Part shown: one piece after another, positions 38,041 through 59,511 of the stretch
How positions within the stretch are numbered: position 1 is the first letter of the stretch
Layout: each line of letters begins with the position of its first letter
DNA from: Candidatus Woesearchaeota archaeon
GTDB taxonomy: Archaea > Nanobdellota > Nanobdellia > Woesearchaeales > GW2011-AR9
NCBI GenBank assembly: GCA_018676855.1
Contig: JABHDY010000003.1
Coordinates: 445,907 to 509,906, forward strand
Length of the DNA stretch: 64,000 bases
Reading direction: 5' to 3'
Notes under the pieces: generated by a model
The model's database searches: none
The model's input: the letters and a program-made list of their open reading frames with translations, nothing else
What the model was told of the DNA's origin: nothing
Position numbers and translations under genes: made by a program

Positions 38041-38364
38041 ATGAGTTCAACAAACGCTAATCAATTACAGATTATTAAACAGAACATAGAGTCTCTCCTT
38101 CTTCAACGACAACAATTAGAATCACAGTTAACCGAACTTACATCAGCTCTTACTGAACTTTCTGAAACGTCTCAATCATACAAAATAATTGGCAAAATTA
38201 TGGTTGCATCATCAAAAGATACTCTTCGTAAGGACATTGAACAGAAAAAAGAAGTTATTGAGATTCGTATTAAGAACATTATACAACAAGAAGAAAAATT
38301 GAAGCAAAACATGGACACTATTCAAAAAGAAGCAGTCAAAGAGTTTCAAGAAAAACAAGAATAA
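38041..38364 (+). CDS. pfdB: Prefoldin beta subunit
   Basis: Coiled coil, beta hairpin (YKIIGKIMV), coiled coil; 107 aa. Confidence 0.7.
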   Translation: MSSTNANQLQIIKQNIESLLLQRQQLESQLTELTSALTELSETSQSYKIIGKIMVASSKDTLRKDIEQKKEVIEIRIKNIIQQEEKLKQNMDTIQKEAVKEFQEKQE

Positions 38365-45090: not shown

Positions 45091-45837
45091 CTAATCATTA
45101 TCTACACGTGGAGCAAGTATGAAACTTAGTAGAACTCTATCTGTAACTTTATACTCTAACTTCATCGGGTAATCAGTATTAAAATGCAGATAAACTTTAT
45201 CTGAAAGTTTTCCACCAGATATCATCTTTTTAAGATATTCTAAGGAATATTTAGCTTTAAAACTCTCATCAGATTCTGCCGTTATTGTTGTTCTATCGTC
45301 CGGTTTAATTTCAATGAATGCTTTTGATAAGTCACCTTCTGCTTTAACAGAAATCTGATTTTTTTGTCCAAGGAATGTAACTGATTCTGCTACGACACTA
45401 ACATCTTCTATCGCTTCTGCAAGAGTTGTAGAGTCCGTTTTAACACTGATAGGAAATGTTAAGTCTGGAACACGCTGTTCTTTATTTTCTATTTCTAATG
45501 TTGGAATGGAAAATGATCGTGTCGTGTTACTTTTTAATTGAATTTTTAATTTGTTATCTTCAGTCGTTTCAAGTGTTAAAATATCGTCACTTTTAGCTCT
45601 TCGAAGGATTTGTTTCAAATTTGCAAGGTTTATAGCAATCTCCTCTTCTTTCTCTACATTATATTCAGTGAAACAGCTACTAAACAGTTCAAAATTCACC
45701 ATGGCAACATTTGCAGGGTCCATAGCAACAAGTTTTAAACCATTCTTTCCCACTTTAAATGTTGCTTCTGTTACTAACTCAGAAACTATAGAAATACTAT
45801 CTTTAAAATATCGTGGTTCAGCTAAGACTAATTTCAT
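45091..45837 (-). CDS. pcn: PCNA sliding clamp
   Basis: 248 aa, two-domain PCNA pattern MKLVLAEPRYFKDSISIVSELVTEATFKV. Confidence 0.85.
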   Translation of the reverse strand: MKLVLAEPRYFKDSISIVSELVTEATFKVGKNGLKLVAMDPANVAMVNFELFSSCFTEYNVEKEEEIAINLANLKQILRRAKSDDILTLETTEDNKLKIQLKSNTTRSFSIPTLEIENKEQRVPDLTFPISVKTDSTTLAEAIEDVSVVAESVTFLGQKNQISVKAEGDLSKAFIEIKPDDRTTITAESDESFKAKYSLEYLKKMISGGKLSDKVYLHFNTDYPMKLEYKVTDRVLLSFILAPRVDND

Positions 45838-45957: not shown

Positions 45958-46332
45958 ATGGATTTAGAATCATGTACATATAGGACATATGAAGGGCCAC
46001 GAGAGGGTAAATCTAATTTATGTGCAATTACAAGAAAACGGGATTTGGCTCAAAAAAATCTGAGAGAAACTGTTGAGATTTATATTGCTGGACGATGTGA
46101 AAGTTGTGATTCAACTAATGGTACTCTTGTTTTTAGAGTAGACAACTTTTCAGACATTTTACGTGACGTGGGCATTCCTAAAAGAAGAATTATACAAGGA
46201 CTTCACGAAATTGCTGATAAAGGATATGTTCCCCTTAGTGCTCTTACTGGTTCACTTAATGCAGAAAAATTACAGATAGTAGAACAATATGTTTCATCAA
46301 AACAAGAATCAAAACAAAAAGGGCCTAAATAA
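45958..46332 (+). CDS. Hypothetical protein with 4-Cys cluster and possible wH
   Basis: C6, C22, C47, C50; C-terminal RIIQGLHEIADKGYV. Confidence 0.3.
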   Translation: MDLESCTYRTYEGPREGKSNLCAITRKRDLAQKNLRETVEIYIAGRCESCDSTNGTLVFRVDNFSDILRDVGIPKRRIIQGLHEIADKGYVPLSALTGSLNAEKLQIVEQYVSSKQESKQKGPK

Positions 46333-47656
46333 CAATTCTTTTCCCATCAACCATAATATGTGTCTTTTTAAAACCAAGTTGGGCAGCCAATTCTTTCAAC
46401 ATTTCAGCTTTTTCTTTCCCGGCATGAGACGGAATGATATTTTTTGGTCGTACCAATTCAAGTAAGTCTCTATGATCTTCCCGTGCACCATGACCAGAAA
46501 CGTGAACATCAGTAAATATTCGTACATTTTTATTTCTTAGGTTCTGTTCAAGCCGGCCCCTATTTTCCTTATTCAGTTCAACGGGAATTACTGAACAGCT
46601 AAACGTGACAATGTCACCAGATTCAAAACGGAACGATTCATGTCCTTTTGCTAATCGTGAGAGAATTGCTTTCGGTTCACCCTGGTGGCCCGTACATACA
46701 ATAAGATACTTTTCTTTTCCTTCTTTCATTATCTTATGTAACATTTTATCAATCTTGTCTCTATATCCAATAAGTTTAACATCCTTTTCAAAATTGACAA
46801 GTTCAATGTTTTGTGCAGCAGTAACGTACTTAGATAATGATCTTCCAAGGAAAACAATTTTCCTGTTTAACTTTTTGCCCATTTCAATAATACTTTTTAA
46901 TCGTGCAATGTGCGACGAAAATGTAGTTACAATCATTCCCTTTCCTTCAGATTGAACGCCAAGAAGAACATCTTTTAACATTTGTTTTGCAACAGATTCT
47001 GACGGCATTTTTCTATGTTCATGTGCATATAAACATTCCATGATAAGTAACGAAATTCCTTTATCACCTAATTCTTTTAATCGTTCAAAATTCGGTTTTT
47101 TTCCAAGTGTTGGTTGCCTATCAAACTTATAATCGTTGGCGTACATAACGCTACCTTCTGGCGTGTGAAGAATAATTAGTGTTGCGTGAGGTATTGAATG
47201 CGTAACATTAACAAATTCAACTGTAAAGTTTTTTGATAATTTATATGTTGAATTAACATTCATGGGTATAATCTTGTTTGAGATGGAAAGTTTTTCATCA
47301 TGCGTTATCGCTTTTAACACTTCTGCAGTATATGGTGTACATACAATGGTTGCGTCTGGAAATAAGGGTGCAGCGTACGGAATTGCGCCTATATGGTCAA
47401 GATGTGCATGACTTGGAACTATTCCTACAACATTTTTTGTCCAATCTTTGATAAGTGTATAATCTGGAACTGCATCAGCTTTCAAAAGTTCTTTATACGT
47501 TTTAGAACGAATATCTTCTCTATCTTCTGTATAATGGATATATTTCTCCATATTGAGGCCCATATCCAAGATAACAACTTCGTCTCCTACTTTAACAGCA
47601 ACGGAGTTTCCACCCGTTTTTGTAAATCCTCCTACTGTACATACTTCTATTGGCAT
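46325..47656 (-). CDS. rnj: Beta-CASP ribonuclease (archaeal RNase J-like)
   Basis: HxHxDH PSHAHLDHIGAIP; beta-CASP motifs; 443 aa. Confidence 0.8.
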   Translation of the reverse strand: MPIEVCTVGGFTKTGGNSVAVKVGDEVVILDMGLNMEKYIHYTEDREDIRSKTYKELLKADAVPDYTLIKDWTKNVVGIVPSHAHLDHIGAIPYAAPLFPDATIVCTPYTAEVLKAITHDEKLSISNKIIPMNVNSTYKLSKNFTVEFVNVTHSIPHATLIILHTPEGSVMYANDYKFDRQPTLGKKPNFERLKELGDKGISLLIMECLYAHEHRKMPSESVAKQMLKDVLLGVQSEGKGMIVTTFSSHIARLKSIIEMGKKLNRKIVFLGRSLSKYVTAAQNIELVNFEKDVKLIGYRDKIDKMLHKIMKEGKEKYLIVCTGHQGEPKAILSRLAKGHESFRFESGDIVTFSCSVIPVELNKENRGRLEQNLRNKNVRIFTDVHVSGHGAREDHRDLLELVRPKNIIPSHAGKEKAEMLKELAAQLGFKKTHIMVDGKRIVI

Positions 47657-47879: not shown

Positions 47880-48899
47880 ATGGTTGAGATGAAACGGTTC
47901 CTATTAATTATAGTATTTACATTCATTTTTATGTTTACTTTAGTGCAAGCACAGATTGATACGACATTTACGTTTACGTCTCCCGATAACGAAGATTTTA
48001 CTGGTTACTTTGCAACAATTCTATTAGACGATGCTGTACAAAAAGTTGTATTAGACAATTCAGAATATACTCTTGCATTAATTGATGGACAATATACTAC
48101 AGATATAATACTTGACTCATTTGACACTCCAACTCCTGACTATTACGGTTCAAAGAGTATTACTGTTCCTTCTGACACATCAATTCCTTTCTTTGTATAT
48201 CCAATAGGATATTTACAGGGAACTGTTGTTGATACAAATGGTAATCTTGTACCAAGTGCACGAATTCAGTTTACATGTTACTCATCAATAGCTGTTGAAT
48301 ATCCACATACTTCTGACGCTGCAGGGTTCTTTACCGTTCCACACATTCCTGTTGGCCGATGTACAATTATTGCGTCTGCTCGCAATGTTGCAGGAAAATC
48401 AGATGTAGAGATTCGTCGTGGTGAAGATACGTCTGTTGAAATTGTTCTTGGACAAACTATAGATTCTTCATATTCCATGTTTAAAATTATTTTATGGGGA
48501 TTTATCGTTCTTGCTGTTATTATTGTCCTTATCTCTTCTTTAGTAAGGCGTAACGTTCAGAAACGAAAGATAGTGTCTCACCACGAAAAAAAGATACAAG
48601 AAAGAAAACGAGAAAATCAACAAGAAGATCAAGAAAAACTAGAAGAAAAACATACTATTTCAAAACAAACCCAAGCACTACTTCAAACATTGTCAGAAAA
48701 GGAACATAAAGTAGTGACGTTCTTAATGAATCATGGTAATGAAGGATCACAAGCACAAATACGGCACGCGACACATATCCCTCGAACGAGCATGGCGCGT
48801 ATACTTCAAACGTTAGAACGGAAAAAGATAGTTCAAATTGAGAAACAGGGTAAAATGGTTCGTGTTGAACTAACAGAACTCTTTCTTGGTAAGAAATAA
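47880..48899 (+). CDS. Membrane-tethered transcriptional regulator: signal peptide, extracellular CarboxypepD_reg-like domain, TM, cytoplasmic wHTH
   Basis: Signal peptide FLLIIVFTFIFMFTLVQA; beta-sandwich motifs GYLQGTVVDTNGNLVPSARIQF, CTIIASARNVAGKSDVEI; TM IILWGFIVLAVIIVLISSLV; basic linker; C-terminal LSEKEHKVVTFLMNHGNEGSQAQIRHATHIPRTSMARILQTLERKKIVQ (MarR/TrmB-like wHTH). Confidence 0.55.
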   Translation: MVEMKRFLLIIVFTFIFMFTLVQAQIDTTFTFTSPDNEDFTGYFATILLDDAVQKVVLDNSEYTLALIDGQYTTDIILDSFDTPTPDYYGSKSITVPSDTSIPFFVYPIGYLQGTVVDTNGNLVPSARIQFTCYSSIAVEYPHTSDAAGFFTVPHIPVGRCTIIASARNVAGKSDVEIRRGEDTSVEIVLGQTIDSSYSMFKIILWGFIVLAVIIVLISSLVRRNVQKRKIVSHHEKKIQERKRENQQEDQEKLEEKHTISKQTQALLQTLSEKEHKVVTFLMNHGNEGSQAQIRHATHIPRTSMARILQTLERKKIVQIEKQGKMVRVELTELFLGKK

Positions 48900-49041
48900 A
48901 TTTTGGGCACTTTTTCTATATTCATTATTTGTTTGGACACAAATTTTGGTTCTAATTAAGACATTTACCCTCTCAATGTATATATATTAGTATGCCTTTT
49001 AGGGTAGTATGAGAAACATAAAATTACACGAGGTAATAAAA

Positions 49042-50922
49042 ATGAATATTAAAAATATACTATTGGTAGCAATACTTGTATTGTTTGCAAGTTCAGTATT
49101 TGTTGCGGCGGCACCTGACGTTGATTTAGTGGTAGATGACTTTTATCTAACATCGGTAAGCGGACAAAAATACAACTTGGATGATACATTTACGGCTGGA
49201 GAAGAAATAAATGTACATCTTACTGTACGAAATTGGGGTACGTCAGACGTTACAGATACGTTTCAAGTAGAGATTATGGCTTGTCGACCAGACGGAACAC
49301 GATGTCATATTCCTTCAAGTGTAGAAATACACTCGTTAGGAGCAGGAAAAGAAGTAACATACACAAGATCATTTACATTTTCTGATAATGATATTGTGAA
49401 TGGCAAATCTATGATTAAAATTCACGTTGATGGCGATAATCAGGTTGTAGAAACAAGTGAAGGAAATAACATTGAATCTGAAGAATTAAATGTACAAAAA
49501 TCGTTTGGTTCTCTATTTTTTGGTGTTGCTGTTAATGATTGGCCAGCACATAAAAATACTGCATTAACAAAAAATCTTAAGAACGCGTATGTTAACATGT
49601 ACACGGTTGTTCTTGATGGTGATGCATTTAAAGTAGTTAGTGTTGAAACTACAAGTACTGGTGCTAGTGAGTATCCTGTTGCACGGTTTACAATTGAACC
49701 AAGTCAAATGGTATACTTTGAAGGGTTTAGAACACGATCTGGAGCAGATCAGGGAGCAACTCAAAAGAAAGCTCTTTTATGGACCGCACCACCGTACAAA
49801 GTGTTTGGACCAAATATGTTATGTCAAACAGATTATACTAATGTTGACAGAATGTTACGGGGAAGTGAATCGTATGCATGCGCAACAATGTTAGCAGTTC
49901 CATACAAAGACATTGAATCTGTTGACTTTACATATCCAGATTTAACTGTAACATCTTTAGCTTACGGCGATACGTCATTTAAAGCGTTAGTATGTAATAC
50001 TGGAGAAGAAGCAGCGGCTAACTTTAAGATAACCTTTGGAGCGAATAACAAAGAAAATACGTTAACATACGTTCCAACATTGGCTGCAGGAAGTTGTGTT
50101 GAAATTTCTTCATGGGGATATAGCCACTTTGGAATTCAAGATACGTATGATACTGTAGAAGCAAAAGTTGATGTTGATTCGTACAACGACATTGTTGAAA
50201 GTGATGAAACTAACAATGGTGCTGTTCTTACACCCTCTTCAGTTTCAGAACGAAATTGGGTAGAACTTGTACTTGATAATAAGCGAGTTACTGGTCAAGC
50301 TATTGAGTATGACATAGTTTCAGCTACTTCGTATCCGACATCACAAAACTGTGTTGTTGAAAATGGAGAGAAGTTGTGTATTGAAAAAACGTACGTGACA
50401 GTTGGTAGTGATGGACGATACGACAAAATCATTTTTTGGATACGTGTTAATAGTGTTGGAACAAAAACGTTTGAACTTAATGCACGGGATAATAGGTTTA
50501 TTGCATTACGTGGGTTAGACAACGAGTACTTTACTGTTGAGCTTAATCCAATGCTAATGAACTTACGGATTTATCCTACAACTGATGGGGTAGCAGAAAG
50601 TGTTGTTGACAATGGTCAATTACCTGAACCTACAACAAATCCACAGTTCCTTGGTGACAGAAGCGTTTGTACAACTGGATGTTCATACAAAGGTAAATGT
50701 TTGGACGCAGGAACACGTATCAAGTTAGGAGATGTTGGCGAGTTTTGTAATTGGGACGGAACTATGGCAAAACAATTTGACGCTGGTGAATCATGTTCAA
50801 ACAATTACGAATGTGGAACGAACAGTTGTGTTAGCGGTAGTTGTGTTGATTTAGCAAAACGGTTAGACGATCAACAAAACTTACTTGAGAAAATTCTTGA
50901 GTGGTTAAAGAAACTATTTTAA
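49042..50922 (+). CDS. Secreted surface protein with two CARDB domains and Cys-rich C-terminus
   Basis: Signal peptide MNIKNILLVAILVLFASSVFVAAA; CARDB-like PDVDLVVDDFYL...GEEINVHLTVRNWG and PDLTVTSLAY...ALVCNTGEEAA; C-terminal CTTGCSYKGKC...CSNNYECGTNSCVSGSC. Confidence 0.6.
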   Translation: MNIKNILLVAILVLFASSVFVAAAPDVDLVVDDFYLTSVSGQKYNLDDTFTAGEEINVHLTVRNWGTSDVTDTFQVEIMACRPDGTRCHIPSSVEIHSLGAGKEVTYTRSFTFSDNDIVNGKSMIKIHVDGDNQVVETSEGNNIESEELNVQKSFGSLFFGVAVNDWPAHKNTALTKNLKNAYVNMYTVVLDGDAFKVVSVETTSTGASEYPVARFTIEPSQMVYFEGFRTRSGADQGATQKKALLWTAPPYKVFGPNMLCQTDYTNVDRMLRGSESYACATMLAVPYKDIESVDFTYPDLTVTSLAYGDTSFKALVCNTGEEAAANFKITFGANNKENTLTYVPTLAAGSCVEISSWGYSHFGIQDTYDTVEAKVDVDSYNDIVESDETNNGAVLTPSSVSERNWVELVLDNKRVTGQAIEYDIVSATSYPTSQNCVVENGEKLCIEKTYVTVGSDGRYDKIIFWIRVNSVGTKTFELNARDNRFIALRGLDNEYFTVELNPMLMNLRIYPTTDGVAESVVDNGQLPEPTTNPQFLGDRSVCTTGCSYKGKCLDAGTRIKLGDVGEFCNWDGTMAKQFDAGESCSNNYECGTNSCVSGSCVDLAKRLDDQQNLLEKILEWLKKLF

Positions 50923-51007
50923 TTTTTTTTTCTTTTAATTTTTTTTTGATATATAAAAATTCTAAAAAGTAATAATAATGGTAATAATAAAAGTAAGAAT
51001 AAAAAAT

Positions 51008-51508
51008 CTATTTAATCCCTTGCAACTGCCGTTCTATATCTCGTAACTGACCCTCAAGTTGAGCTAAATTATCATCTTCAAGTTCTTGTTTAGGAGGAGC
51101 AGTTGTTGGTGCAGGTTGATTTACCACTTGTACTTGTGGTCCAATGCCCGCTGCTTTTTGTTGCTGTTCAGCTACGTTCTGCGGTGTTACTGCTCGTAAC
51201 TTACCTTTAGGAAGATATTTTCGCAATTTATCATTTACAAGAACGTTAAGTTGTTTCACTTCAATTTTTAACTGCGTAAAAAGTGCAACTTTTTCTTCCT
51301 GAATTCGTCTAAACTTTTCATAGCCCTGCATAAAGATAATAACTTCACGAAGTGATTCTAACAAATCTTTACGTACAAGTTTAGGTTCCGATACTTGAAC
51401 CATATAGTCTGGTTCAGTACTTTTTGTTTCAACCTTCTTAACAGGAGCACGTCTTTTAGTTGTTCTCTTTCGTGTCGTCTTTTTCTTTTTTGCAGCCATT
51501 TTAGTCAT
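51008..51508 (-). CDS. Coiled-coil protein P3 with Lys/Arg-rich N-terminus
   Basis: Start taken at MTKMAAKKKK, 4 nt after the P2 stop (the track ORF start would overlap P2). KKKKTTRKRTTKRR tail, then two coiled-coil segments. Confidence 0.5.
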   Translation of the reverse strand: MTKMAAKKKKTTRKRTTKRRAPVKKVETKSTEPDYMVQVSEPKLVRKDLLESLREVIIFMQGYEKFRRIQEEKVALFTQLKIEVKQLNVLVNDKLRKYLPKGKLRAVTPQNVAEQQQKAAGIGPQVQVVNQPAPTTAPPKQELEDDNLAQLEGQLRDIERQLQGIK

Positions 51509-51512
51509 GTTT

Positions 51513-51740
51513 TTAGAAATGTTCAGGTTCATTAAGAGAATGATCAATAAAATCAATCTTTTTCTCAACTTCTACTAACGTATTCTGCCAGACTTCTAAC
51601 TGGTGATCTTCTTCATTTTTAAGATCGTGAATCTTTGCAAGCGTTTCTTTCGCTTCTTCCATTTTTGTTCGAACCATCCGTAGAAGGCTTAAAACGTCAT
51701 CATATTCATCAATTTTTACAAATACAGGCATTCTATCCAT
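51513..51740 (-). CDS. Coiled-coil protein P2 (75 aa), paralogous to the P1 C-terminal domain
   Basis: Start 2 nt after the P1 stop. PVFVKIDEYDDVLSLLRMVR aligns with P1 PLYIKMNVYQRILGDLDALK. Confidence 0.55.
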   Translation of the reverse strand: MDRMPVFVKIDEYDDVLSLLRMVRTKMEEAKETLAKIHDLKNEEDHQLEVWQNTLVEVEKKIDFIDHSLNEPEHF

Positions 51741-51742
51741 TT

Positions 51743-52219
51743 TTATTCACCTTGGCCCTTGAATAATACTTTATCCGCAATCAAGATACGGTCGTGTACA
51801 TTTCGCATAATCTTTTTGAGCTTTTCAAAATTATTTTCTTCATTGAATTCAGAATTTTCCAACCGTCTGTTTGCTTCTTGAAGAGATGTAATGTCAACTT
51901 TTAATGCGTCTAAATCTCCGAGAATACGTTGATACACGTTCATTTTAATGTATAATGGTTCACGTGTTAGTGATCGTTCTGGTTGTTGCTGCCGTACAGG
52001 TTGTTGTTGTACCTGTTCTTGTGGTGGTACTTCATCAACGTCTTCCTGAGGATATGCACTCTGTTTTTTAAATCCTGCAGCTTTTTTAATTTCTTCTGGT
52101 TCAATGACTTTCGCGGGTGGAGATGTAGTAGGAAAACGTAATGCTTTTTCGTCAAATGCTGGTCCTGGAGGAGGAGCATCTTGCATAATTTTCTTTTTCT
52201 TACCAAACAACCATCCCAT
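51743..52219 (-). CDS. Coiled-coil protein P1 of a three-gene operon (N-terminal MGWLFGKKKK, Pro/Gln-rich linker, C-terminal coiled coil)
   Basis: Promoter-like TTTTTAAAC and RBS GAGGT upstream. Residues 98-117 PLYIKMNVYQRILGDLDALK are paralogous to the P2 N-terminus. Confidence 0.55.
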   Translation of the reverse strand: MGWLFGKKKKIMQDAPPPGPAFDEKALRFPTTSPPAKVIEPEEIKKAAGFKKQSAYPQEDVDEVPPQEQVQQQPVRQQQPERSLTREPLYIKMNVYQRILGDLDALKVDITSLQEANRRLENSEFNEENNFEKLKKIMRNVHDRILIADKVLFKGQGE

Positions 52220-52315
52220 TTTAATATCTTACCTCAAGAACGTTTAAAAACTTTGTTTAGTATTCTTACGTAGTAAAAACATAATATAAGCGAACCTGTA
52301 TTCTCCTCATATTCG

Positions 52316-54505
52316 ATGAAAATACTATTTTGTTTTTTCTTGTTTATTATTCTTATAGTGTGTACGTCCATTTCTATAGCGGATATTACAATTAATGAGG
52401 TGATGTACGCTCCCACGACAGATTTTGGCGGTTCGTCTAATGAATGGATCGAATTATACACTTATGATACTATGCAGTACAATTTATCTGAATGTACATT
52501 AAATAATAAATCACTTCATGGAATAATAAACGATTCTTCTTATGTAATTCTTGTAAGAAATAAAGAAAAGTTTATTGAAATTTATGAAACTAATTTTACT
52601 TCAATAGTAGAAGTAAGTTTTGGCCGTGGGTTATCAAATAAAGGTGCTGAAATTATTCTTAATTGCAATGATAATTTTGACAATATGGATTATGATGGAA
52701 CTTTAGGAATACAAGGAAAAACGCTCGAAATGAATAAAGATGGTGAATGGAAAGAAAGTTTGGTAGATGGTGGAACTCCTGGAATGAAGAATAGTGTGTA
52801 CGATTTCAGTTATGATTATTCTGATTTAGAAATTACTGAAATAATGGTCGATCCATTAGGAGATGATGATGCAACTAAACCATTGGGTGAATGGATAGAA
52901 TTGTACAATTCTGGTGATGATTCAGTTTATTTAGATGGTTTAGTTTTATATGATGAAGATGACGCTAACGAGTTATATATAACCAAAACTAATACTAATA
53001 CTTTAGAGTTGTGTAGTAAATGTTATACTGTTGTGTACAGAGATAACGATGGAGATTTTGATTTAAGCAAAGTTGAAGACTCTGTACGATTATATACTGG
53101 ATATCCAATTTCAGACAATCTCCTTATTGATGAGATTAGTTTTACAAATGCAATAGAGGGAACAAGTTTTAGTAAGTTTGATAATGGATGGTACAAAACA
53201 GTTCCAACTCCAGGAAACGAGAATAAGTATACTGCGGGATGTGATTGGAAGATTGAAATAGACATGAACAATTCTATTTTTCATACAACGGATATGGATT
53301 TTGATATTATTGTTAGTAGGATTTTTGGAGAGAAACAAAATGTTACTGTAAAAGGTATTATTGAAAATGTTTTTGGCGAACCCATAAAAGAATATTCTCC
53401 TTGGACAAATAAAAAGATCACAACAAGTAATACAAAAAAATATACGCCAAATTTGCATGAGGGTGTCTACCAGATACGTTTTTGGATTGAAAGTCTTATG
53501 TGTGGCGATACTGACAATACAAATAATGATGTAACTAAACTTGTTGCAATTAACCCACAATATAAAGAAACTACATCATCTCTTGAAATTGAAAGAATGT
53601 ATTTAGGGAATGATAATAAAGCAGAATGGGGAGATCAATTTACGGCAAAGATTAATGTGTATAAAGGTAATGAAACAAGGTACTCTGTTCAGGTATGGGT
53701 AGAAAAAGATGATGAAAAAGTTAGTAAAACTACAAAGTTAAGTATACATGATCAGTATAAACAATATCCATTAACTATTCCCATTCAACTTGAACCAAAT
53801 TGTAATAATAAAATTGATGATGGAAATGTATTGTTAGTTGTGGAAGCGTTTGGATTACGTACAGAGAAAGAGTTTCTTGTTAAAGGCGTTGACAATGAAA
53901 TTTGTAAAGATTATTTAGATTATATTAAGGATCAGGAAGATGAAATTGAACGGAAAAAAGTTGGATATAGAATAATAGAAAAACCTTTAGAAATATTCTC
54001 TGGAGAAATATTTCCTATCAAAGTTCAGTTATTAAACGGTAATGATGTTCAACCATATACTGTCTGGAGTTATATGTATAGGGGAAGTACATGTTATTCT
54101 TGTGACGGTTCTGAAAGGGACGGGAACAAACAACGCGTTATTTTACAACCTGACGAAGTACAAATTGTTGAATTTCTTTTGAAAGCTGATGATGTACAGG
54201 AAGGTGAGTATAAGATTAAAGTTAAAGTTCAGAAAGGCAATCAGAAAACTGTTAAAGATATTACAGAAACGATAACTGTTGTGTCTGAGAAGAAAACATT
54301 GTCTGAATCGTTACCTTTATTTGTTGAATCTGGTGGTGGAAATGTCTCTTCTCCATTTTCTTCAAAAACTCGCGTGTTTGGCAATTCCTTAACGGGAGGG
54401 GTTGTTGTCTATGAATCAAGTGGCGTGAAAGCGAAGAAACTTATTCCTGTATTGTTGTTCGTTACCTTCGGCTTAGTATGTTTGGTGTTGATTTGGAAGA
54501 AGTAG
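52316..54505 (+). CDS. Surface protein with two lamin-tail domains (LTD) and C-terminal TM anchor
   Basis: Signal peptide; LTD signatures ITINEVMYAPTTDFGGSSNEWIELYTYD and EITEIMVDPLGDDDATKPLGEWIELYNSGDDSVYLDGLVL; C-terminal LIPVLLFVTFGLVCLVLIWKK. Confidence 0.6.
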   Translation: MKILFCFFLFIILIVCTSISIADITINEVMYAPTTDFGGSSNEWIELYTYDTMQYNLSECTLNNKSLHGIINDSSYVILVRNKEKFIEIYETNFTSIVEVSFGRGLSNKGAEIILNCNDNFDNMDYDGTLGIQGKTLEMNKDGEWKESLVDGGTPGMKNSVYDFSYDYSDLEITEIMVDPLGDDDATKPLGEWIELYNSGDDSVYLDGLVLYDEDDANELYITKTNTNTLELCSKCYTVVYRDNDGDFDLSKVEDSVRLYTGYPISDNLLIDEISFTNAIEGTSFSKFDNGWYKTVPTPGNENKYTAGCDWKIEIDMNNSIFHTTDMDFDIIVSRIFGEKQNVTVKGIIENVFGEPIKEYSPWTNKKITTSNTKKYTPNLHEGVYQIRFWIESLMCGDTDNTNNDVTKLVAINPQYKETTSSLEIERMYLGNDNKAEWGDQFTAKINVYKGNETRYSVQVWVEKDDEKVSKTTKLSIHDQYKQYPLTIPIQLEPNCNNKIDDGNVLLVVEAFGLRTEKEFLVKGVDNEICKDYLDYIKDQEDEIERKKVGYRIIEKPLEIFSGEIFPIKVQLLNGNDVQPYTVWSYMYRGSTCYSCDGSERDGNKQRVILQPDEVQIVEFLLKADDVQEGEYKIKVKVQKGNQKTVKDITETITVVSEKKTLSESLPLFVESGGGNVSSPFSSKTRVFGNSLTGGVVVYESSGVKAKKLIPVLLFVTFGLVCLVLIWKK

Positions 54506-54564
54506 TTCTTAGTTACTTTACAGTTCCAAAACACTTAAAAACCTCCCCTTATTAGACATCTCTC

Positions 54565-55143
54565 ATGGAGAAAAATATAACGTTTAGAACAGTAATAGAA
54601 ATTCTTGGAAAACCGCAGGAACATGTAGAAAAGTCCATCAAAGAGTATGTCAAGAAGCTTAAAGATGATGATAAATATGAAGTTCTTGAAGAAGAATTTG
54701 CAGATATTAAGAAACAGGAAGATCAAGATTTATGGGCAACCTTCGCAGAACTGGAAGTGAAAACCTCTTCATTACAAGATCTTAGCGCGTTTTGTTTTGA
54801 ATACATGCCTTCTCTTATGGAAATCATTGAACCTAAAAAAATGAACCTTACTGATTCAAACGTATCAGAATTTCTAAGCGATCTTCAATCAAAATTACAT
54901 CAAATAGATATGGTTGCGAAACATGTTAAGATGGAAAATGATATGTTGAAGAAAAGTATTAATTCTCTCCTTAAAAATTATATTGTTGTTCTATTGCGAC
55001 CACGAAATTTAACAGCAGATCAATTAAGTAAATTAACGGGTGTTGCGCAAGATAAATTGGAAGATTTTTTGGATCAGTTGATTGATGAAGGAAGAATAGA
55101 TTTAAAAGAGGGAATATATTTCCTTACAGATACTAAAAAATGA
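54565..55143 (+). CDS. Putative short ScpA-like kleisin (coiled coil plus C-terminal wH)
   Basis: Immediately upstream of, and overlapping, scpB (ATGA overlap). C-terminal LTADQLSKLTGVAQDKLEDFLDQLIDEGRIDLKEG wH. Assignment by context only. Confidence 0.35.
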   Translation: MEKNITFRTVIEILGKPQEHVEKSIKEYVKKLKDDDKYEVLEEEFADIKKQEDQDLWATFAELEVKTSSLQDLSAFCFEYMPSLMEIIEPKKMNLTDSNVSEFLSDLQSKLHQIDMVAKHVKMENDMLKKSINSLLKNYIVVLLRPRNLTADQLSKLTGVAQDKLEDFLDQLIDEGRIDLKEGIYFLTDTKK

Positions 55144-55763
55144 GTAGTGATGAAAAAAGGGTAGAGGCTGTTATTTTTGCAGTTGGTAAAGAGATTACAA
55201 CAGAAAGAATTGCACATTTATGTTCTTTAGATAATAAAAATGTTGAAAAAATTATGAAAGGATTACAGAAAGAGTACTCTCAACGAGATCATTCCCTCCA
55301 GATTGTTACAAAAGATAATGGATGGAAATTAACAGTAAGAGATGAGTTCGTTCCGTTAGTAAGCAGTATAGTTTCTTCAACAGAACTTGAAAAACCACTC
55401 ATGGAAACGTTGGCAGTTATTGCATGGAAATATCCTATTATTCAATCAGAGATTGTTAAGTTACGTGGAGCAAGTGCGTATGATCATATGAAACAGTTAG
55501 GGGAGCAAGGTTTTATTGCAAAGGAAAAGTTTGGCCGAACATACAAAGTTAAATTGACACAGAAATTTTTCGGATATTTTGATTTACCAACAGAAGAAGC
55601 AAAAAATGCGTTCCTAAAATTAGTACCTGAAGACGTTCTTGCAGAAGCAGAAAATGTTCATAAAGAAGCTGACGAAGTTGAACGGTTAGTTGAGTTGGAG
55701 AAGAACGAAAAAGGTTCTAAAGATGAGATTAGAAGTGCGATGGACGATGTTCAGAAAGAGTAA
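55140..55763 (+). CDS. scpB: Segregation and condensation protein B (ScpB)
   Basis: Tandem wH: VEAVIFAVGKEITTERIAHL... and ETLAVIAWKYPIIQSEIVKLRGASAYDHMKQLGEQGFI. Confidence 0.75.
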   Translation: MSSDEKRVEAVIFAVGKEITTERIAHLCSLDNKNVEKIMKGLQKEYSQRDHSLQIVTKDNGWKLTVRDEFVPLVSSIVSSTELEKPLMETLAVIAWKYPIIQSEIVKLRGASAYDHMKQLGEQGFIAKEKFGRTYKVKLTQKFFGYFDLPTEEAKNAFLKLVPEDVLAEAENVHKEADEVERLVELEKNEKGSKDEIRSAMDDVQKE

Positions 55764-55849
55764 TATAACCGACAGCTTTATAAACCTCCAAATTCTTTAT
55801 ATTAGTGTAATTTACCGACGATAAACAATACTTTTAAAATATTAAAAAA

Positions 55850-58417
55850 ATGACTGAAAATAGCCCAGAAACTAAGGACAAAATCATTTCAAAAGTGATT
55901 GAAGATGAGATGAAACAGGCATACGTCAATTATGCTATGTCTGTCATAGTTGGGAGGGCCCTGCCTGATGTTAGAGACGGTTTGAAGCCTGTTCATAGAA
56001 GGATTCTGTACAGTATGTTTGACATGGGTATGCTTCATAATAGACCGTTTAAGAAATGTGCACGTATTGTAGGGGAAGTTTTAGGAAAGTATCATCCTCA
56101 CGGTGACAGTTCTGTATATGACGCCCTTGTACGTATGGCCCAAGACTTTTCATTACGATATCCTCTTGTTAAAGGTCAAGGAAATTTTGGAAGTATTGAT
56201 GGCGATTCTGCAGCTGCAATGAGATATACGGAAGCGAAACTTAACAAGCTTGCAGAAGATTTGTTGAAAGATATTGACAAAGAAACCGTATCATTCAAAC
56301 CTAATTTTGATGCTTCGTTAAAGGAACCAGAAGTACTTCCAAGCGTTATTCCAAATTTACTCATTAATGGTTCTTCAGGAATTGCTGTTGGTATGGCAAC
56401 GAACATTCCACCACATAACGTTAACGAAGTATGTAGTGGTGTTATTGCAACTATTAACAATCCAGACATTACAACTGAAGAATTGATGGAAATCATTCCT
56501 GCACCTGACTTTCCAACTGGTGGAGAAGTTATATGTGGAAATGCGTTATGGTACGCATATTCTAAAGGAAAGGGAAAAGTTAAGATTAAAGCAATAACAG
56601 AATTTGAAGATGATAAAATTATTGTAAAAGAAATTCCGTACCAAGTTAATAAAGAAGAACTTATTCAACATATTGCGTCGCTTGTTCGTGATAAACGAAT
56701 TATTGGAATTAGAAATATTAATGATGAATCGGATAGGGAAGGTATCAGAATAGTTATTGATCTTAAGAAAGATACCGATGCAAATGTTATCCTTAACCAA
56801 CTTTTTAAGTATAGTAGGTTAAAAATATCGTTCGGCATAACTTTCCTTGCATTAGTAAATAATGAACCTAAACGTCTTGGTTTGATAGAGTTCATGCAAC
56901 ATCATATTAACCATAGAAAAGACGTTATTACAAAAAGAACACAATATGATTTATTGCAGGCACAAAAACGTGTTCATATTCTTGACGGTCTTCTTATTGC
57001 ATTAGAGAATATTGATACTGTTATTCCAGGAATTAAAAAGAGTGCAACTGTTGAAGATGCAAAACAGTTCCTTATGGAAACGTATGATCTGAGTGAATTA
57101 CAAGCAAAAGCTATTCTTGAAATGCGCCTTCAGAAACTTGCATCTCTTGAACAGGACAAAATTAGAAATGAACATACAGAATTACATGAAAAAATCACGT
57201 TATATGAATCAATCCTTGCATCTGAAGAGAAAGTTTTAGACCTTATAAAAACTGAACTTATAGAAATTAAAGAAAAGTATGGTGATGAACGACGATCGAA
57301 GATTATATACGGAGAGGACGAAGATTTTGACATTGAAGAATTGATTGAAGAAAGTACAGTTGTTGTTACAATGACAAATTCTGGGTATATCAAACGTCTT
57401 CCATTAGATACGTATAAGACACAGAGACGTGGCGGTAAGGGTATGATTGCTGCTGGAACAAGGGAAGAAGATTTTGTTGAAAAGGTTTATGTTACAAGTA
57501 CGCACGATTATGTGTTATTCTTTACAGATAAAGGACAGTTATATTGGTTAAAAGTATATCAAATACCTGAGGGTAGGAGACAATCTAAAGGCAAACATAT
57601 TGTTAACCTTATTGATTTACGTCAGGATGAAAAAATCACTGCAACCGTACCAGTACGAGATTTTAAGGAAGGATTTCTTTTCATGGCAACAGAAATGGGA
57701 ACGGTAAAAAAAACAGAACTAACATACTTTTCAAAGCCAAGAAAAGCAGGTATTCGTGCCCTTACGCTTGATGAAGGTGATACACTTGTTGGTGTACGGT
57801 ACACTAACGGTAATCATGAAATTCTTCTTGCAACTAAGAAAGGTCTTGCAAATAGGTTTAAAGAAAAAGATATCAGATCAATGGGAAGAACTGCACGCGG
57901 AGTTAGAGGTATAAGATTATCTTCTGAAGATAAAGTTATTGGAATGCTCGCTGCAGAAGAGGGTAAGAATATTCTTACGATAACAGAGAAAGGTTATGGA
58001 AAAAGAACTCCAGTATCAGATTATCGTTTATGTAAACGTGGCGGTAAAGGTGTTATGAACATGAGAATAACAGAAAAGAATGGTCCTGTAAAATCTGTAA
58101 AGCTTGTTGATGGAAATGAAGAACTTATGTTAATTTCAAAGAACGGTATTGGTATTAGAATAAAATGTTCAGACATTTCAATCATAGGACGTGCAACACA
58201 GGGTGTCCGTGTTATGCGTATGAATGATAATGATGAAGTTGCTGCAGCTGCCAAAGTTGTTATTGAAGATGGTGAAGTTGCAGAAATTGAAAATGAAGAA
58301 TCTTCAGATTCAGTAACAGAAGATCTACCCGAAGCACAAGAAACACAAGAAGCACAAGAAACGGAAGATATAGAAGAAACACAAGAAGCAGATGAAACAG
58401 AAGATGTGAAAGAATGA
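55850..58417 (+). CDS. gyrA: DNA gyrase subunit A
   Basis: N-terminus [32 protein letters not shown]; active-site AAMRYTE; C-terminal beta-pinwheel repeats; acidic tail. Confidence 0.9.
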
Positions 58418-59511
58418 ATCTTTATGCTTTCGTACGACCTGGAACAGAACTCGTTTCTCAGAAAGAAATACAAGAAGTTTGTAATGTAAATTCTATCATT
58501 CACAATTCCGTTCTTGAGTTTGATGTTAAGAATAAAGAAGATATTGTTCAAGCAGTGTACCATCTTCAGTCTGTACGGCGACTTGTTTTTTCTTTAGGCA
58601 AGTATCAAGATATTGAATCAATCAATTTCAATTCTGTCCAATTTCCTTGGAAAGACATATTTTCCAAAACGTGTTCGTGCAAAGTTGATGTTGAAGGTGT
58701 TAAAGGTCAAGATAATAGAATAACTATTGCAAAAAATGTTCTTTCATCATTACTTCCAACAATAGAACAAAAATGTGGTTTCACCCCAAATATTGACGTA
58801 AAAAATCCATCAATAATAATTTCCGTTTTTCATAATGGAGATAATTATTTTATTGGTATTGATATGTGTGGTAAGGAACTTGATGCACGGTTTTATCGTG
58901 TATTTCCTCATTCTGGTTCGTTTAAAGGAGATTTAGCATATTACTTTGTACGAAAGTCTGGATTTAGTAAAGGCGAACAATTACTTATAGGTTTTGTTAA
59001 AGATGGTGCGTTAGTTATAGAAGCAGCAATTTTTGAATCAACGTACCTTGTTCAAGACATAACACAAAAAGATTTGTCACTATTTTCATTTCCATTATTT
59101 CACAACTTTGATTTTGATCAAGTAATTTCTAATCCTACACAAGATAATAACAAAAACATTTTTGCATTTGATGAAAGTACACGAAATCATACTGCTGCAC
59201 GTAAAAACATCAAAATTGCAGGCGTTTCTTCACAAATTGAAATATCAAAACACGATATTGACGATCTTGATGTTCGATATTCAAAAGATCAATTTAATCG
59301 GCTCATTTTTCACGTAACGACAAAGGATGAAGAAAGAATTAATGAAATATATTATCAAGCATCCTACGTCTTACAAAAAAAAGGAACACTTTTATTTATT
59401 GGCCGCGAAAATTGGGACGTATCAGTTTCTGAAAAATTCACTTTGATAGAAAAAGAGGAGATTGTTCATGGAAAAGGAAAGTATGTGTTATGGCTTCTCG
59501 AAAAGAAATAA
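58414..59511 (+). CDS. THUMP-domain protein, Trm11/RlmL-like with divergent methyltransferase motifs
   Basis: N-terminal THUMP-like region. [11 protein letters not shown]...[17 protein letters not shown] aligns to the Trm11 motif I region (LDPFCGSGT to GFVKDGAL). NPPY-like VISNPTQ. Overlaps the gyrA stop. Confidence 0.4.

Follow-up and report, generated by a model that had tools for sequence, protein, structure and literature searches.

Several described systems invite comparison with the locus analyzed here. ZapA/ZapB and DivIVA/GpsB are small, abundant coiled-coil scaffolds at the membrane or the Z-ring, with DivIVA binding the membrane via exposed hydrophobic and basic residues, while EsxA and EsxB (WXG100) are encoded by adjacent genes as paralogous helix-turn-helix hairpins of ∼70 to 100 residues, for which a heterodimeric four-helix bundle is expected. 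In ESCRT-III, PspA, and Vipp1 proteins, the N-terminal H0 mediates lipid binding, and the archaeal homologs of ESCRT-III, which occur alongside Vps4, have so far been reported from every archaeal lineage but DPANN (PMC7619361). In SepF, in turn, a flexible linker joins a short membrane-targeting motif at the N terminus to a self-associating domain at the C terminus (PMC8178401). Here, we focused on three small genes, P1, P2, and P3, in a 64,000-nucleotide (nt) stretch of DNA (referred to as the window) from a Candidatus Woesearchaeota archaeon (contig JABHDY010000003.1, positions 445,907 to 509,906 of the forward strand). The three genes form a conserved operon, and, as far as their sequences tell, their products amount to three new lineage-specific protein families, two of which share a paralogous helical hairpin.

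A trio of minus-strand genes with very short spacing had been proposed in an earlier note made from the sequence of the window alone, and we verified both the open reading frames (ORFs) and the gaps, with a stop-to-start distance of 2 nt between P1 and P2 and of 4 nt between P2 and P3. In window coordinates, the operon consists of the following parts:

51743-52219, minus strand: P1 gene, 158 amino acids, start MGWLFGKKKK
51513-51740, minus strand: P2 gene, 75 amino acids, a stand-alone strand-plus-hairpin module
51008-51508, minus strand: P3 gene, 166 amino acids, best read with the ATG at 51508 as start and the stop at 51008
50983-51007, minus strand: oligo-T tract ATTTTTTATTCTTACTTTTATTATT immediately after the P3 stop, read from the sequence

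From the ATG at 51508, the N terminus of P3 reads MTKMAAKKKKTTRKRTTKRR (MTKMAAKKKK...). Given that P3 orthologs begin with MAKKK, the TTG at 51568 and longer ATG starts, which overlap P2, are unlikely to be used. A Shine-Dalgarno (SD)-like AAGGTGA is located at 51747-51753 on the minus strand, within the last codons of P1 (GQGE, GGCCAAGGTGAA) and 6 nt before the ATG of P2. Oligo-T tracts serve as archaeal terminators, and the tract that follows P3 can be read as such a terminator closing the operon. Taken together, the gaps of 2 and 4 nt, the SD-like site in the 3′ end of P1, and the oligo-T tract after P3 point to one translationally coupled operon. The conserved “QGE” at the C terminus of P1 overlaps the SD-like AAGGTGA ahead of the P2 start, and its conservation at the protein level may partly reflect a translation signal for P2. 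The only Rfam match in the locus, CRISPR-DR36 at 50993-51026 (minus strand), was below threshold (18.9 bits versus a gathering score of 38) and covers the P3 stop and the oligo-T tract; with an E value of 0.34, it was taken as a chance match.

The trio genes are real, and their conservation as a unit is far beyond chance. Over 78 related loci, tblastn found P1 in 78, P2 in 76, and P3 in 75, always adjacent and in this order. The earlier note had named absence of the trio as a conserved unit in related genomes as refuting its proposal; instead, the unit is conserved in 75 to 78 of the 78 loci, across a DPANN lineage. A scan of one genome per species gave 76 loci, corresponding to about 76 species-level genomes of Woesearchaeota and Nanoarchaeota, and ORF calls placed P1, P2, and P3 next to each other on the same strand in essentially every untruncated locus. 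The gene order is kept even by divergent members, with E values of 1e-19 to 1e-28 to the P1 profile. Close relatives of P1 in the databases number 56, all of them annotated as hypothetical and all from metagenome-assembled genomes (MAGs) of Woesearchaeota or Nanoarchaeota, and a HMMER search with the P1 profile over 1.84 billion cluster representatives yielded only members of this family, in 150 clusters with an E value of <1e-10, which, apart from some fragments, have the same size and architecture. P2 and P3 are 100% identical to proteins from a Candidatus Woesearchaeota MAG (HOL21_01290 and HOL21_01295). The P2 family comprises 1,395 members, every one hypothetical or without a meaningful name, and the P3 family comprises at least 362, all hypothetical.

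Two annotations attached to these sequences deserve mention. Several JGI records call copies of P2 “uncharacterized NAD(P)/FAD-binding protein YdhS,” which is almost certainly a misannotation, since P2 is a helical protein of 75 residues. Many MAG records that contain the trio locus (L004, L005, L007, and others) are titled “uncultured Methanosarcinales archaeon”; given that their locus content and gene order match those of Woesearchaeota and Nanoarchaeota MAGs, these titles are probably wrong.

Measured against the copies in the window, the median identity over the loci was 75% for PCNA, 74% for GyrA, 72% for P2, 68% for ScpB, 65% for RNase J, 47% for P3, 42% for P1, and 36.5% for the divergently encoded LTD-domain membrane protein. 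P2 thus evolves as slowly as core replication proteins such as GyrA and PCNA.

None of the three proteins could be assigned to a family, in agreement with the earlier note. Pfam (E ≤ 10), NCBIfam, PHROG, and PADLOC gave no family at threshold for P1, P2, or P3, and member-wise Pfam scans of 64 P1 and 64 P3 orthologs returned only scattered subthreshold coiled-coil noise (BBS2_hp, TPR_PATROL1, TMF_TATA_bd, and DUF6465). Profile searches of the PDB (E ≤ 10), run with the alignment of each protein, gave no significant match, Foldseek found zero matches to the P1 model in the PDB, and no named family was linked to P1 among the best 150 clusters of the HMMER search. The view that the trio is neither prefoldin, SepF, nor CdvA/B could be upheld, and the same goes for ESCRT-III/PspA, as profile and fold searches gave no significant match to any of them; for CdvA (PRC barrel plus helical domain) and CdvB (Snf7 domain), this covers Pfam and NCBIfam. 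Relatives of the trio were not found in IMG/VR either. We therefore rejected a mobile, viral, or defense origin on the basis of the missing IMG/VR relatives, the lack of significant PHROG and PADLOC matches, a chromosomal neighborhood that is fixed in the 78 loci, and core-gene conservation. The fixed position, the core-level conservation of P2, and these negative searches argue instead for a core cellular function.

Within the trio, two members are related. Judged by profile alignment, P2 is a true paralog of the C-terminal helical hairpin of P1, which bears out the proposal that P2 is essentially this C-terminal module alone. P2 aligned to residues 84 to 152 of P1 over 69 ungapped columns with an hhalign probability of 94% and an E value of 1.3e-7, a result that was reproduced on a second run. 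The shared motif P-h-[FY]-h-K-h-x-x-Y-x-x-h-L, in the main already recognized from the window copies, is kept across more than 60 orthologs each of P1 and P2. Both proteins also share an N-E-E hairpin tip (LKNEEDH in P2 and SE[FY]NEENNF in P1), of which LKNEED is invariant in P2 and SE[FY]NEE in P1, so that lead-in and tip are both invariant or nearly so. The invariant residues of the shared module are P5, F7, Y13, L17, N42, and E44 in P2 and Y96, L100, N126, and E127 in P1. P2 is strongly acidic (net charge of −7.6), has a mean column identity of 76% over 62 orthologs, and is always 75 to 78 amino acids long. From these alignments, the P1 C terminus and P2 can be described as a new hairpin family, in which the strand lead-in is followed by two helices that make up a hairpin of ∼60 residues with N-E-E at its tip. 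For P3, in contrast to the trio of paralogs that had been proposed, hhalign detected no relationship to P2 (probability of 0.35%) or P1 (1.6%), suggesting that the operon encodes a paralogous pair and an unrelated helical partner.

P1 combines the hairpin with a long N-terminal region, and four parts can be distinguished along its sequence:

52190-52219, minus strand: P1 residues 1 to 10, MGWLFGKKKK, a near-invariant hydrophobic-then-basic motif and candidate membrane-insertion or anchoring segment
52070-52189, minus strand: P1 residues 11 to 50, a proline/aromatic “head” with conserved short linear motifs
51956-52069, minus strand: P1 residues 51 to 88, a Pro/Gln/Glu-rich disordered spacer, variable in length and sequence
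51743-51955, minus strand: P1 residues 89 to 158 plus stop, with the strand-like lead-in PLYIKMNVYQRIL, the helical hairpin, and the SE[FY]NEE tip

Residues G2, W3, L4, F5, G6, K8, and K9 of P1 are invariant or at least 90% conserved among 55 to 64 orthologs, and the mean net charge of the first 12 residues is +3.4. The N terminus had been called amphipathic, but its helical hydrophobic moment is just 0.16, and it is better described as a hydrophobic triad, W-L-F, followed by a run of lysines. The head has the family consensus motifs VPKVPFPEG, DExALRFP, and VIEPExxKEAVGF, and in the family alignments its near-invariant columns are P12, P15, P17, L27, F29, P30, I39, P41, K45, A47, and G49. Residues 1 to 88 are predicted with low confidence by AlphaFold2 (AF2), yet residues 1 to 50 are strongly conserved as short motifs. 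The predicted local distance difference test (pLDDT) score is 55 to 69 in the head, where a single short helix (residues 41 to 47) is seen, and 47 to 66 in the spacer. Between residue 13 and the hairpin, the proline fraction is 0.17 and the net charge is about −2.7. The hairpin itself was modeled by AF2 with the family alignment at a pLDDT of ∼90, with helices spanning residues 93 to 122 and 127 to 154 (30 and 28 residues). A Pro/Gln-rich linker followed by a C-terminal helical segment, as the earlier note had read the protein, is thus what we see. The hairpin has a mean net charge of −1.0, and Y96, L100, S123, E124, N126, E127, F131, H142, D143, and D149 are invariant.

A divergent P1 subfamily (P0393 to P0427 and related proteins; L079 and L080) begins with MGLFSRKKK instead of MGWLFGKKK and has the hairpin consensus KPFFLRxQxYQ...KSEFNEN...IHDRLL..DDLIFKK, as seen on short contigs only. 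We observed that the first six residues of this subfamily are nearly those of Escherichia coli PspA (MGIFSR).

The third protein is likewise built from distinct segments:

P3 residues 1 to 41: polybasic disordered tail (AF2; charge of +8.1)
P3 residues 42 to 98: long basic helix containing LESLREVIIFMQGYEKFRRIQEEK (AF2; pLDDT of 87 to 97)
P3 residues 109 to 120: weak helix (AF2)
P3 residues 141 to 165: acidic C-terminal helix LAQLEGQLRDIERQL, confident in AF2, after a variable disordered linker

The tail, with a net charge of +8.1 and 35% lysine plus arginine, is 19 to 44 residues long and conserved in composition only. The core has a mean net charge of +4.2, the C-terminal helix one of −3.2, and a conserved YLPKGKL motif precedes the variable linker. 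These segments agree with the basic N terminus and the two helical segments (42 to 98 and 141 to 165) expected for P3, and a membrane-binding head in P1 together with a basic tail in P3 appears to be a reasonable reading of both proteins. We also considered whether the C-terminal helix of P3 could be a MIM1 motif and rejected this, as its register does not fit the MIM1 consensus, (D/E)xxLxxRLxxL(K/R).

The region upstream of P1 contains an element that is far better conserved than the protein encoded behind it:

52242-52276, minus strand: promoter-proximal element of ∼35 nt, tTACTATT-N5-AATACTAAACAAAG-TTTTTAAAC, conserved over 68 distinct loci

It is composed of two TACTA boxes 13 nt apart and a following AAAG-TTTTTAAA that resembles a transcription factor B recognition element (BRE) with a TATA box. 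Its columns are at least 90% conserved across the 68 distinct upstream regions, even though P1 is only ∼42% identical. The element ends ∼23 nt before the P1 ATG and lies inside a divergent intergenic region of 96 nt that P1 has in common with the LTD gene. A 23-mer from the element has one copy in the 64-kb window, versus 0.01 expected, and 54 of 82 loci have exactly one copy of the 14-mer AATACTAAACAAAS, placed in each case ∼45 nt ahead of the P1 start codon; the two-box pattern, too, is unique in each locus. This single-copy occurrence shows that the element is not a generic promoter consensus, and a site that is near-invariant and unique to the locus argues for a dedicated regulation of the trio. 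We consider it probably a dedicated promoter or a regulator site, possibly a bidirectional one, given that the 96-nt region is shared with the LTD-MJ0538-ScpB-GyrA unit and the element may therefore serve both directions. An assignment of the TACTA boxes to the aCcr1-box of Sulfolobales (PMC9976878) was rejected, since the similarity is too loose. The TATA-like TTTTTAAA is located 24 to 31 nt from the P1 ATG, which suggests a leaderless mRNA or one with a very short leader. Of the TATA-like box and ribosome-binding site (RBS) that had been suggested for P1, the former is conserved, whereas conservation of the GAGGT taken as the RBS was not found among the orthologous upstream regions. A metagenome scan with TACTATT-N5-AATACTAAAC, a pattern that is too loose, showed no P1-like start downstream among the at least 120 matches listed (2 of them at a contig end).

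A likeness to EsxA/EsxB lies in the fact that the P1 C terminus and P2 are paralogous hairpins encoded by adjacent genes. They differ in that the trio has no W-x-G turn but a [KF]NEE[DN] tip, no type VII secretion context, and an archaeal and cytoplasmic setting, and in that P1 bears a long N-terminal extension. ZapA/ZapB and DivIVA/GpsB are bacterial families with other folds and lengths than the trio; no match to these families was found, and ZapB matched only 2 of the 64 P1 members, with E values of at least 0.085. The lead-in “hhhK.xxY..hL” of P1 and P2 loosely recalls the β1-α1 start of SepF. P1 also resembles SepF in its overall layout of N-terminal motif, linker, and C-terminal domain, but the SepF core is an α/β dimer with a five-stranded sheet and two helices (PMC8178401), whereas P1 and P2 are helical hairpins. 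SepF (PF04472) was not matched in Pfam, and the AF2 model of P1 is all-helical.

The trio is embedded among archaeal housekeeping genes and genes for surface proteins (strand given where assigned):

45091-45837: PCNA
46325-47656: RNase J
49009-50922: CARDB surface protein
52316-54505, plus strand: LTD-domain membrane protein, divergent from the trio
54565-55143, plus strand: 192-amino-acid winged-helix protein whose orthologs carry the Pfam family MJ0538; overlaps scpB by 4 nt
55140-55763, plus strand: ScpB
55850-58417, plus strand: GyrA
58414-59511, plus strand: THUMP methyltransferase
38041-38364: canonical prefoldin beta

On the plus strand from 52316 to 59511, the LTD, MJ0538-family, ScpB, GyrA, and THUMP genes follow one another in the same orientation, either separated by short gaps or overlapping by 4 nt, an order that is kept across the lineage. 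The numbers of loci, out of 78, with each neighbor were 73 for the LTD gene, 63 for the MJ0538-like gene, 61 for ScpB, 43 for RNase J, 42 for GyrA, and 31 for PCNA, with some of these counts limited by contig ends; 5 loci have no adjacent LTD match. The genomic setting described earlier stands as far as the surface-protein neighbors (CARDB and LTD) and ScpB are concerned, but the gene called scpA encodes the MJ0538-family winged-helix protein, which neither Pfam nor NCBIfam recognized as ScpA. This 192-amino-acid protein could be a divergent kleisin-like partner. Next to the CARDB protein, at 47880-48899 on the plus strand, we noted a 339-amino-acid protein with a CarboxypepD_reg-like domain and a C-terminal helix-turn-helix (HTH) domain (IclR/TrmB/MarR-like); this pair is found beside the trio in just 10 of the 78 loci. 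ARAGORN found no tRNA genes across the 64-kb window.

Our best-supported but tentative reading, which we hold to be possible but somewhat short of an even chance, is that the trio forms a lineage-specific, membrane-tethered, hetero-oligomeric coiled-coil scaffold on the cytoplasmic face of the membrane. According to this reading, P1 would lose Met1, its G-W-L-F hydrophobic triad would insert into the bilayer, and the lysine run would lie on the lipid head groups. The proline/aromatic head and a flexible spacer of 40 to 90 residues would then push the C-terminal hairpin into the cytoplasm, where it would pair with its paralog P2, likely as a four-helix bundle in which the two P-h-[FY]-h-K-h strands are paired. 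The charges of the partners are complementary, with −7.6 in P2 versus +4.2 in the core of P3 and +8.1 in its tail, and the very acidic P2 would form a bridge to the long, basic helix of P3. Through its charge, the polybasic P3 tail would bind either nucleic acid or anionic lipid, and the acidic C-terminal helix of P3 would serve in self-association or in regulation. As a structural scaffold, the complex would take part in a core process of the cell cycle or the envelope, such as division, envelope organization, or nucleoid-membrane attachment, with transcription of the trio controlled through the dedicated promoter element. The genes and their order, the paralogy of P1 and P2, the hairpin, the charge pattern, the degree of conservation, and the promoter element are what the analysis shows; that the complex binds the membrane, which partners pair, and which process they serve are inferred from these. 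Several points weigh against such a scaffold. The N-terminal motif of P1 is just ∼9 residues long and is no amphipathic helix (moment of 0.16), and a specific contact with another protein would account for its near-invariance as well as lipid binding does. Polybasic tails are ambiguous between DNA or RNA and lipid. Collinearity of the neighborhood (GyrA-ScpB-MJ0538-LTD on one side of the trio and RNase J-PCNA on the other) extends through more than 12 kb of unrelated genes, so that adjacency is weak evidence for function.

The neighborhood and the tail of P3 also bear on a rather unlikely alternative, namely, that the trio is a nucleoid- or chromosome-associated complex in which the P3 tail binds DNA and the coiled coils bridge or organize it together with SMC-ScpB and gyrase, while the N terminus of P1 would be a protein interaction motif or a nucleoid-membrane tether. 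A tail with ∼35% lysine plus arginine, a charge of about +8, and variable length is as found in histone-H1-like tails and HU extensions, the trio shares the 96-nt divergent region and promoter element with the LTD-MJ0538-ScpB-GyrA-THUMP unit and has PCNA downstream in many loci, and P2 equals replication proteins in its degree of conservation. However, neither a DNA-binding domain nor a DNA-binding fold was detected in our searches, it is only the composition of the tail that is conserved, the synteny includes many unrelated genes and may be simple lineage-wide collinearity, and the invariant hydrophobic-basic N terminus of P1 is better explained by membrane contact. The neighboring LTD gene, a divergent neighbor in 73 of the 78 loci, would be the key to another explanation that we regard as highly improbable, in which the trio would serve the LTD surface protein, or some other component of the envelope, as a chaperone or assembly factor of the small, acidic hairpin type, by analogy with heterodimeric hairpin chaperones and prefoldin-like holdases. 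P2 is indeed small, acidic, and helical, the trio recalls prefoldin as a set of small archaeal coiled-coil subunits forming hetero-oligomers, and there is weak, subthreshold similarity to tail-assembly chaperones, TBCA, and prefoldin alpha. All these similarities are far below significance, though: prefoldin gave no Pfam match to P1, P2, or P3, and the sole match in the PDB search was prefoldin alpha, with an E value of 3.3. Prefoldin also has β-hairpins between its helices, of which the P1 model has none, and the window already encodes a canonical prefoldin beta. The supposed client LTD protein is far less conserved (36.5%) than P2 (72%) and has no adjacent match in 5 of the 78 loci, and neither the head of P1, with its membrane motif, nor the polybasic P3 tail is a feature of chaperones.

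A kinship with the ESCRT-III superfamily was weighed in the same way. The trio would in this case be an extremely diverged or minimized ESCRT-III/PspA relative, with the hairpins of P1 and P2 as the polymer, the P1 N terminus as H0, and P3 as the source of a regulatory helix, which we judge very unlikely. The start of P1, MGWLFGKKK or MGLFSRKKK, resembles those of CHMP3 (MGLFGK; PDB 3frv), PspA (MGIFSR; PDB 4whe), and Vipp1 (MGLFDR; PDB 8qfv), albeit over a span of ∼6 residues. P1 and P2 have a helical hairpin as their core, a hallmark of the superfamily, and DPANN is the only archaeal lineage reported to be without ESCRT-III so far (PMC7619361). In P3, as in ESCRT-III proteins, a terminal amphipathic helix follows a core and a flexible linker. 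The φPxφP “MIM2 core,” as defined previously (PMC8970359), is found at residues 10 to 14 in 40 of the 64 P1 orthologs, versus 3.25 after shuffling. However, this core is absent from the P1 of the window and a full MIM2 from all 64 orthologs, and, given also that DPANN are reported to be without ESCRT-III (PMC7619361), the idea of a MIM2/Vps4 interaction was rejected; no Vps4 partner is known in DPANN. The architecture differs as well. The P1 motif is followed by prolines and ∼80 disordered residues before the hairpin, whereas H0 is contiguous with H1 in ESCRT-III; the P1 hairpin has about half the length (2 × ∼30 residues) and no H3 to H5 in the AF2 model. The five-helix core is unmatched, with two helices in P1, 75 amino acids in total in P2, and one long plus one terminal helix in P3, and the features are split over three polypeptides. 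Snf7 (PF03357) and PspA_IM30 (PF04012) were not matched in Pfam, either at E ≤ 10 or member-wise, and no ESCRT-III, PspA, or Vipp1 chain was listed by the PDB profile searches (E ≤ 10). Alignments by hhalign with the PDB-verified PspA, Vipp1, and CHMP3 had probabilities of <4%, but the positive control, PspA versus CHMP3, failed too, so this negative result is weak because of its low power. Given the likeness of just ∼6 residues, the disordered gap, the short hairpin, and the negative hhalign result, we do not file the trio under ESCRT-III. It is also quite unlikely that the trio is an unrecognized membrane-associated polymer or scaffold for division or membrane remodeling, either as an independent invention or as a minimized, split descendant of ESCRT-III/PspA; if true, a superphylum reported to be without ESCRT-III would have an analog or remnant of it beside FtsZ.

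Any division role of the trio would be alongside FtsZ. The suggestion that this lineage lacks the usual machinery is unsupported, since reviews describe FtsZ-based division in DPANN (PMC7617429), FtsZ systems were found in 93% of the DPANN genomes tested (PMC8407392), and FtsZ transcripts of Woesearchaeota were detected (PMC11606122). Woesearchaeota and their relatives are abundant, uncultured, and ultra-small, and hardly anything beyond FtsZ has been described of their cell organization. The trio probably belongs to the core structure of these cells, given that the conservation of P2 is on a par with that of PCNA and gyrase, that the operon has its own promoter element, and that P1 starts like ESCRT-III/PspA proteins. 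A scaffold role is plausible, and an unusual mechanism is not indicated so far; should the trio turn out to be no more than a coiled-coil adaptor of a generic kind, it would still amount to three new lineage-specific protein families. The small size of the proteins makes the trio tractable for reconstitution. If the membrane-tethered scaffold is real, P1, P2, and P3 would be named candidates for the divisome or the envelope skeleton of DPANN and would reveal whether membrane scaffolds built from hairpins have more than one origin.

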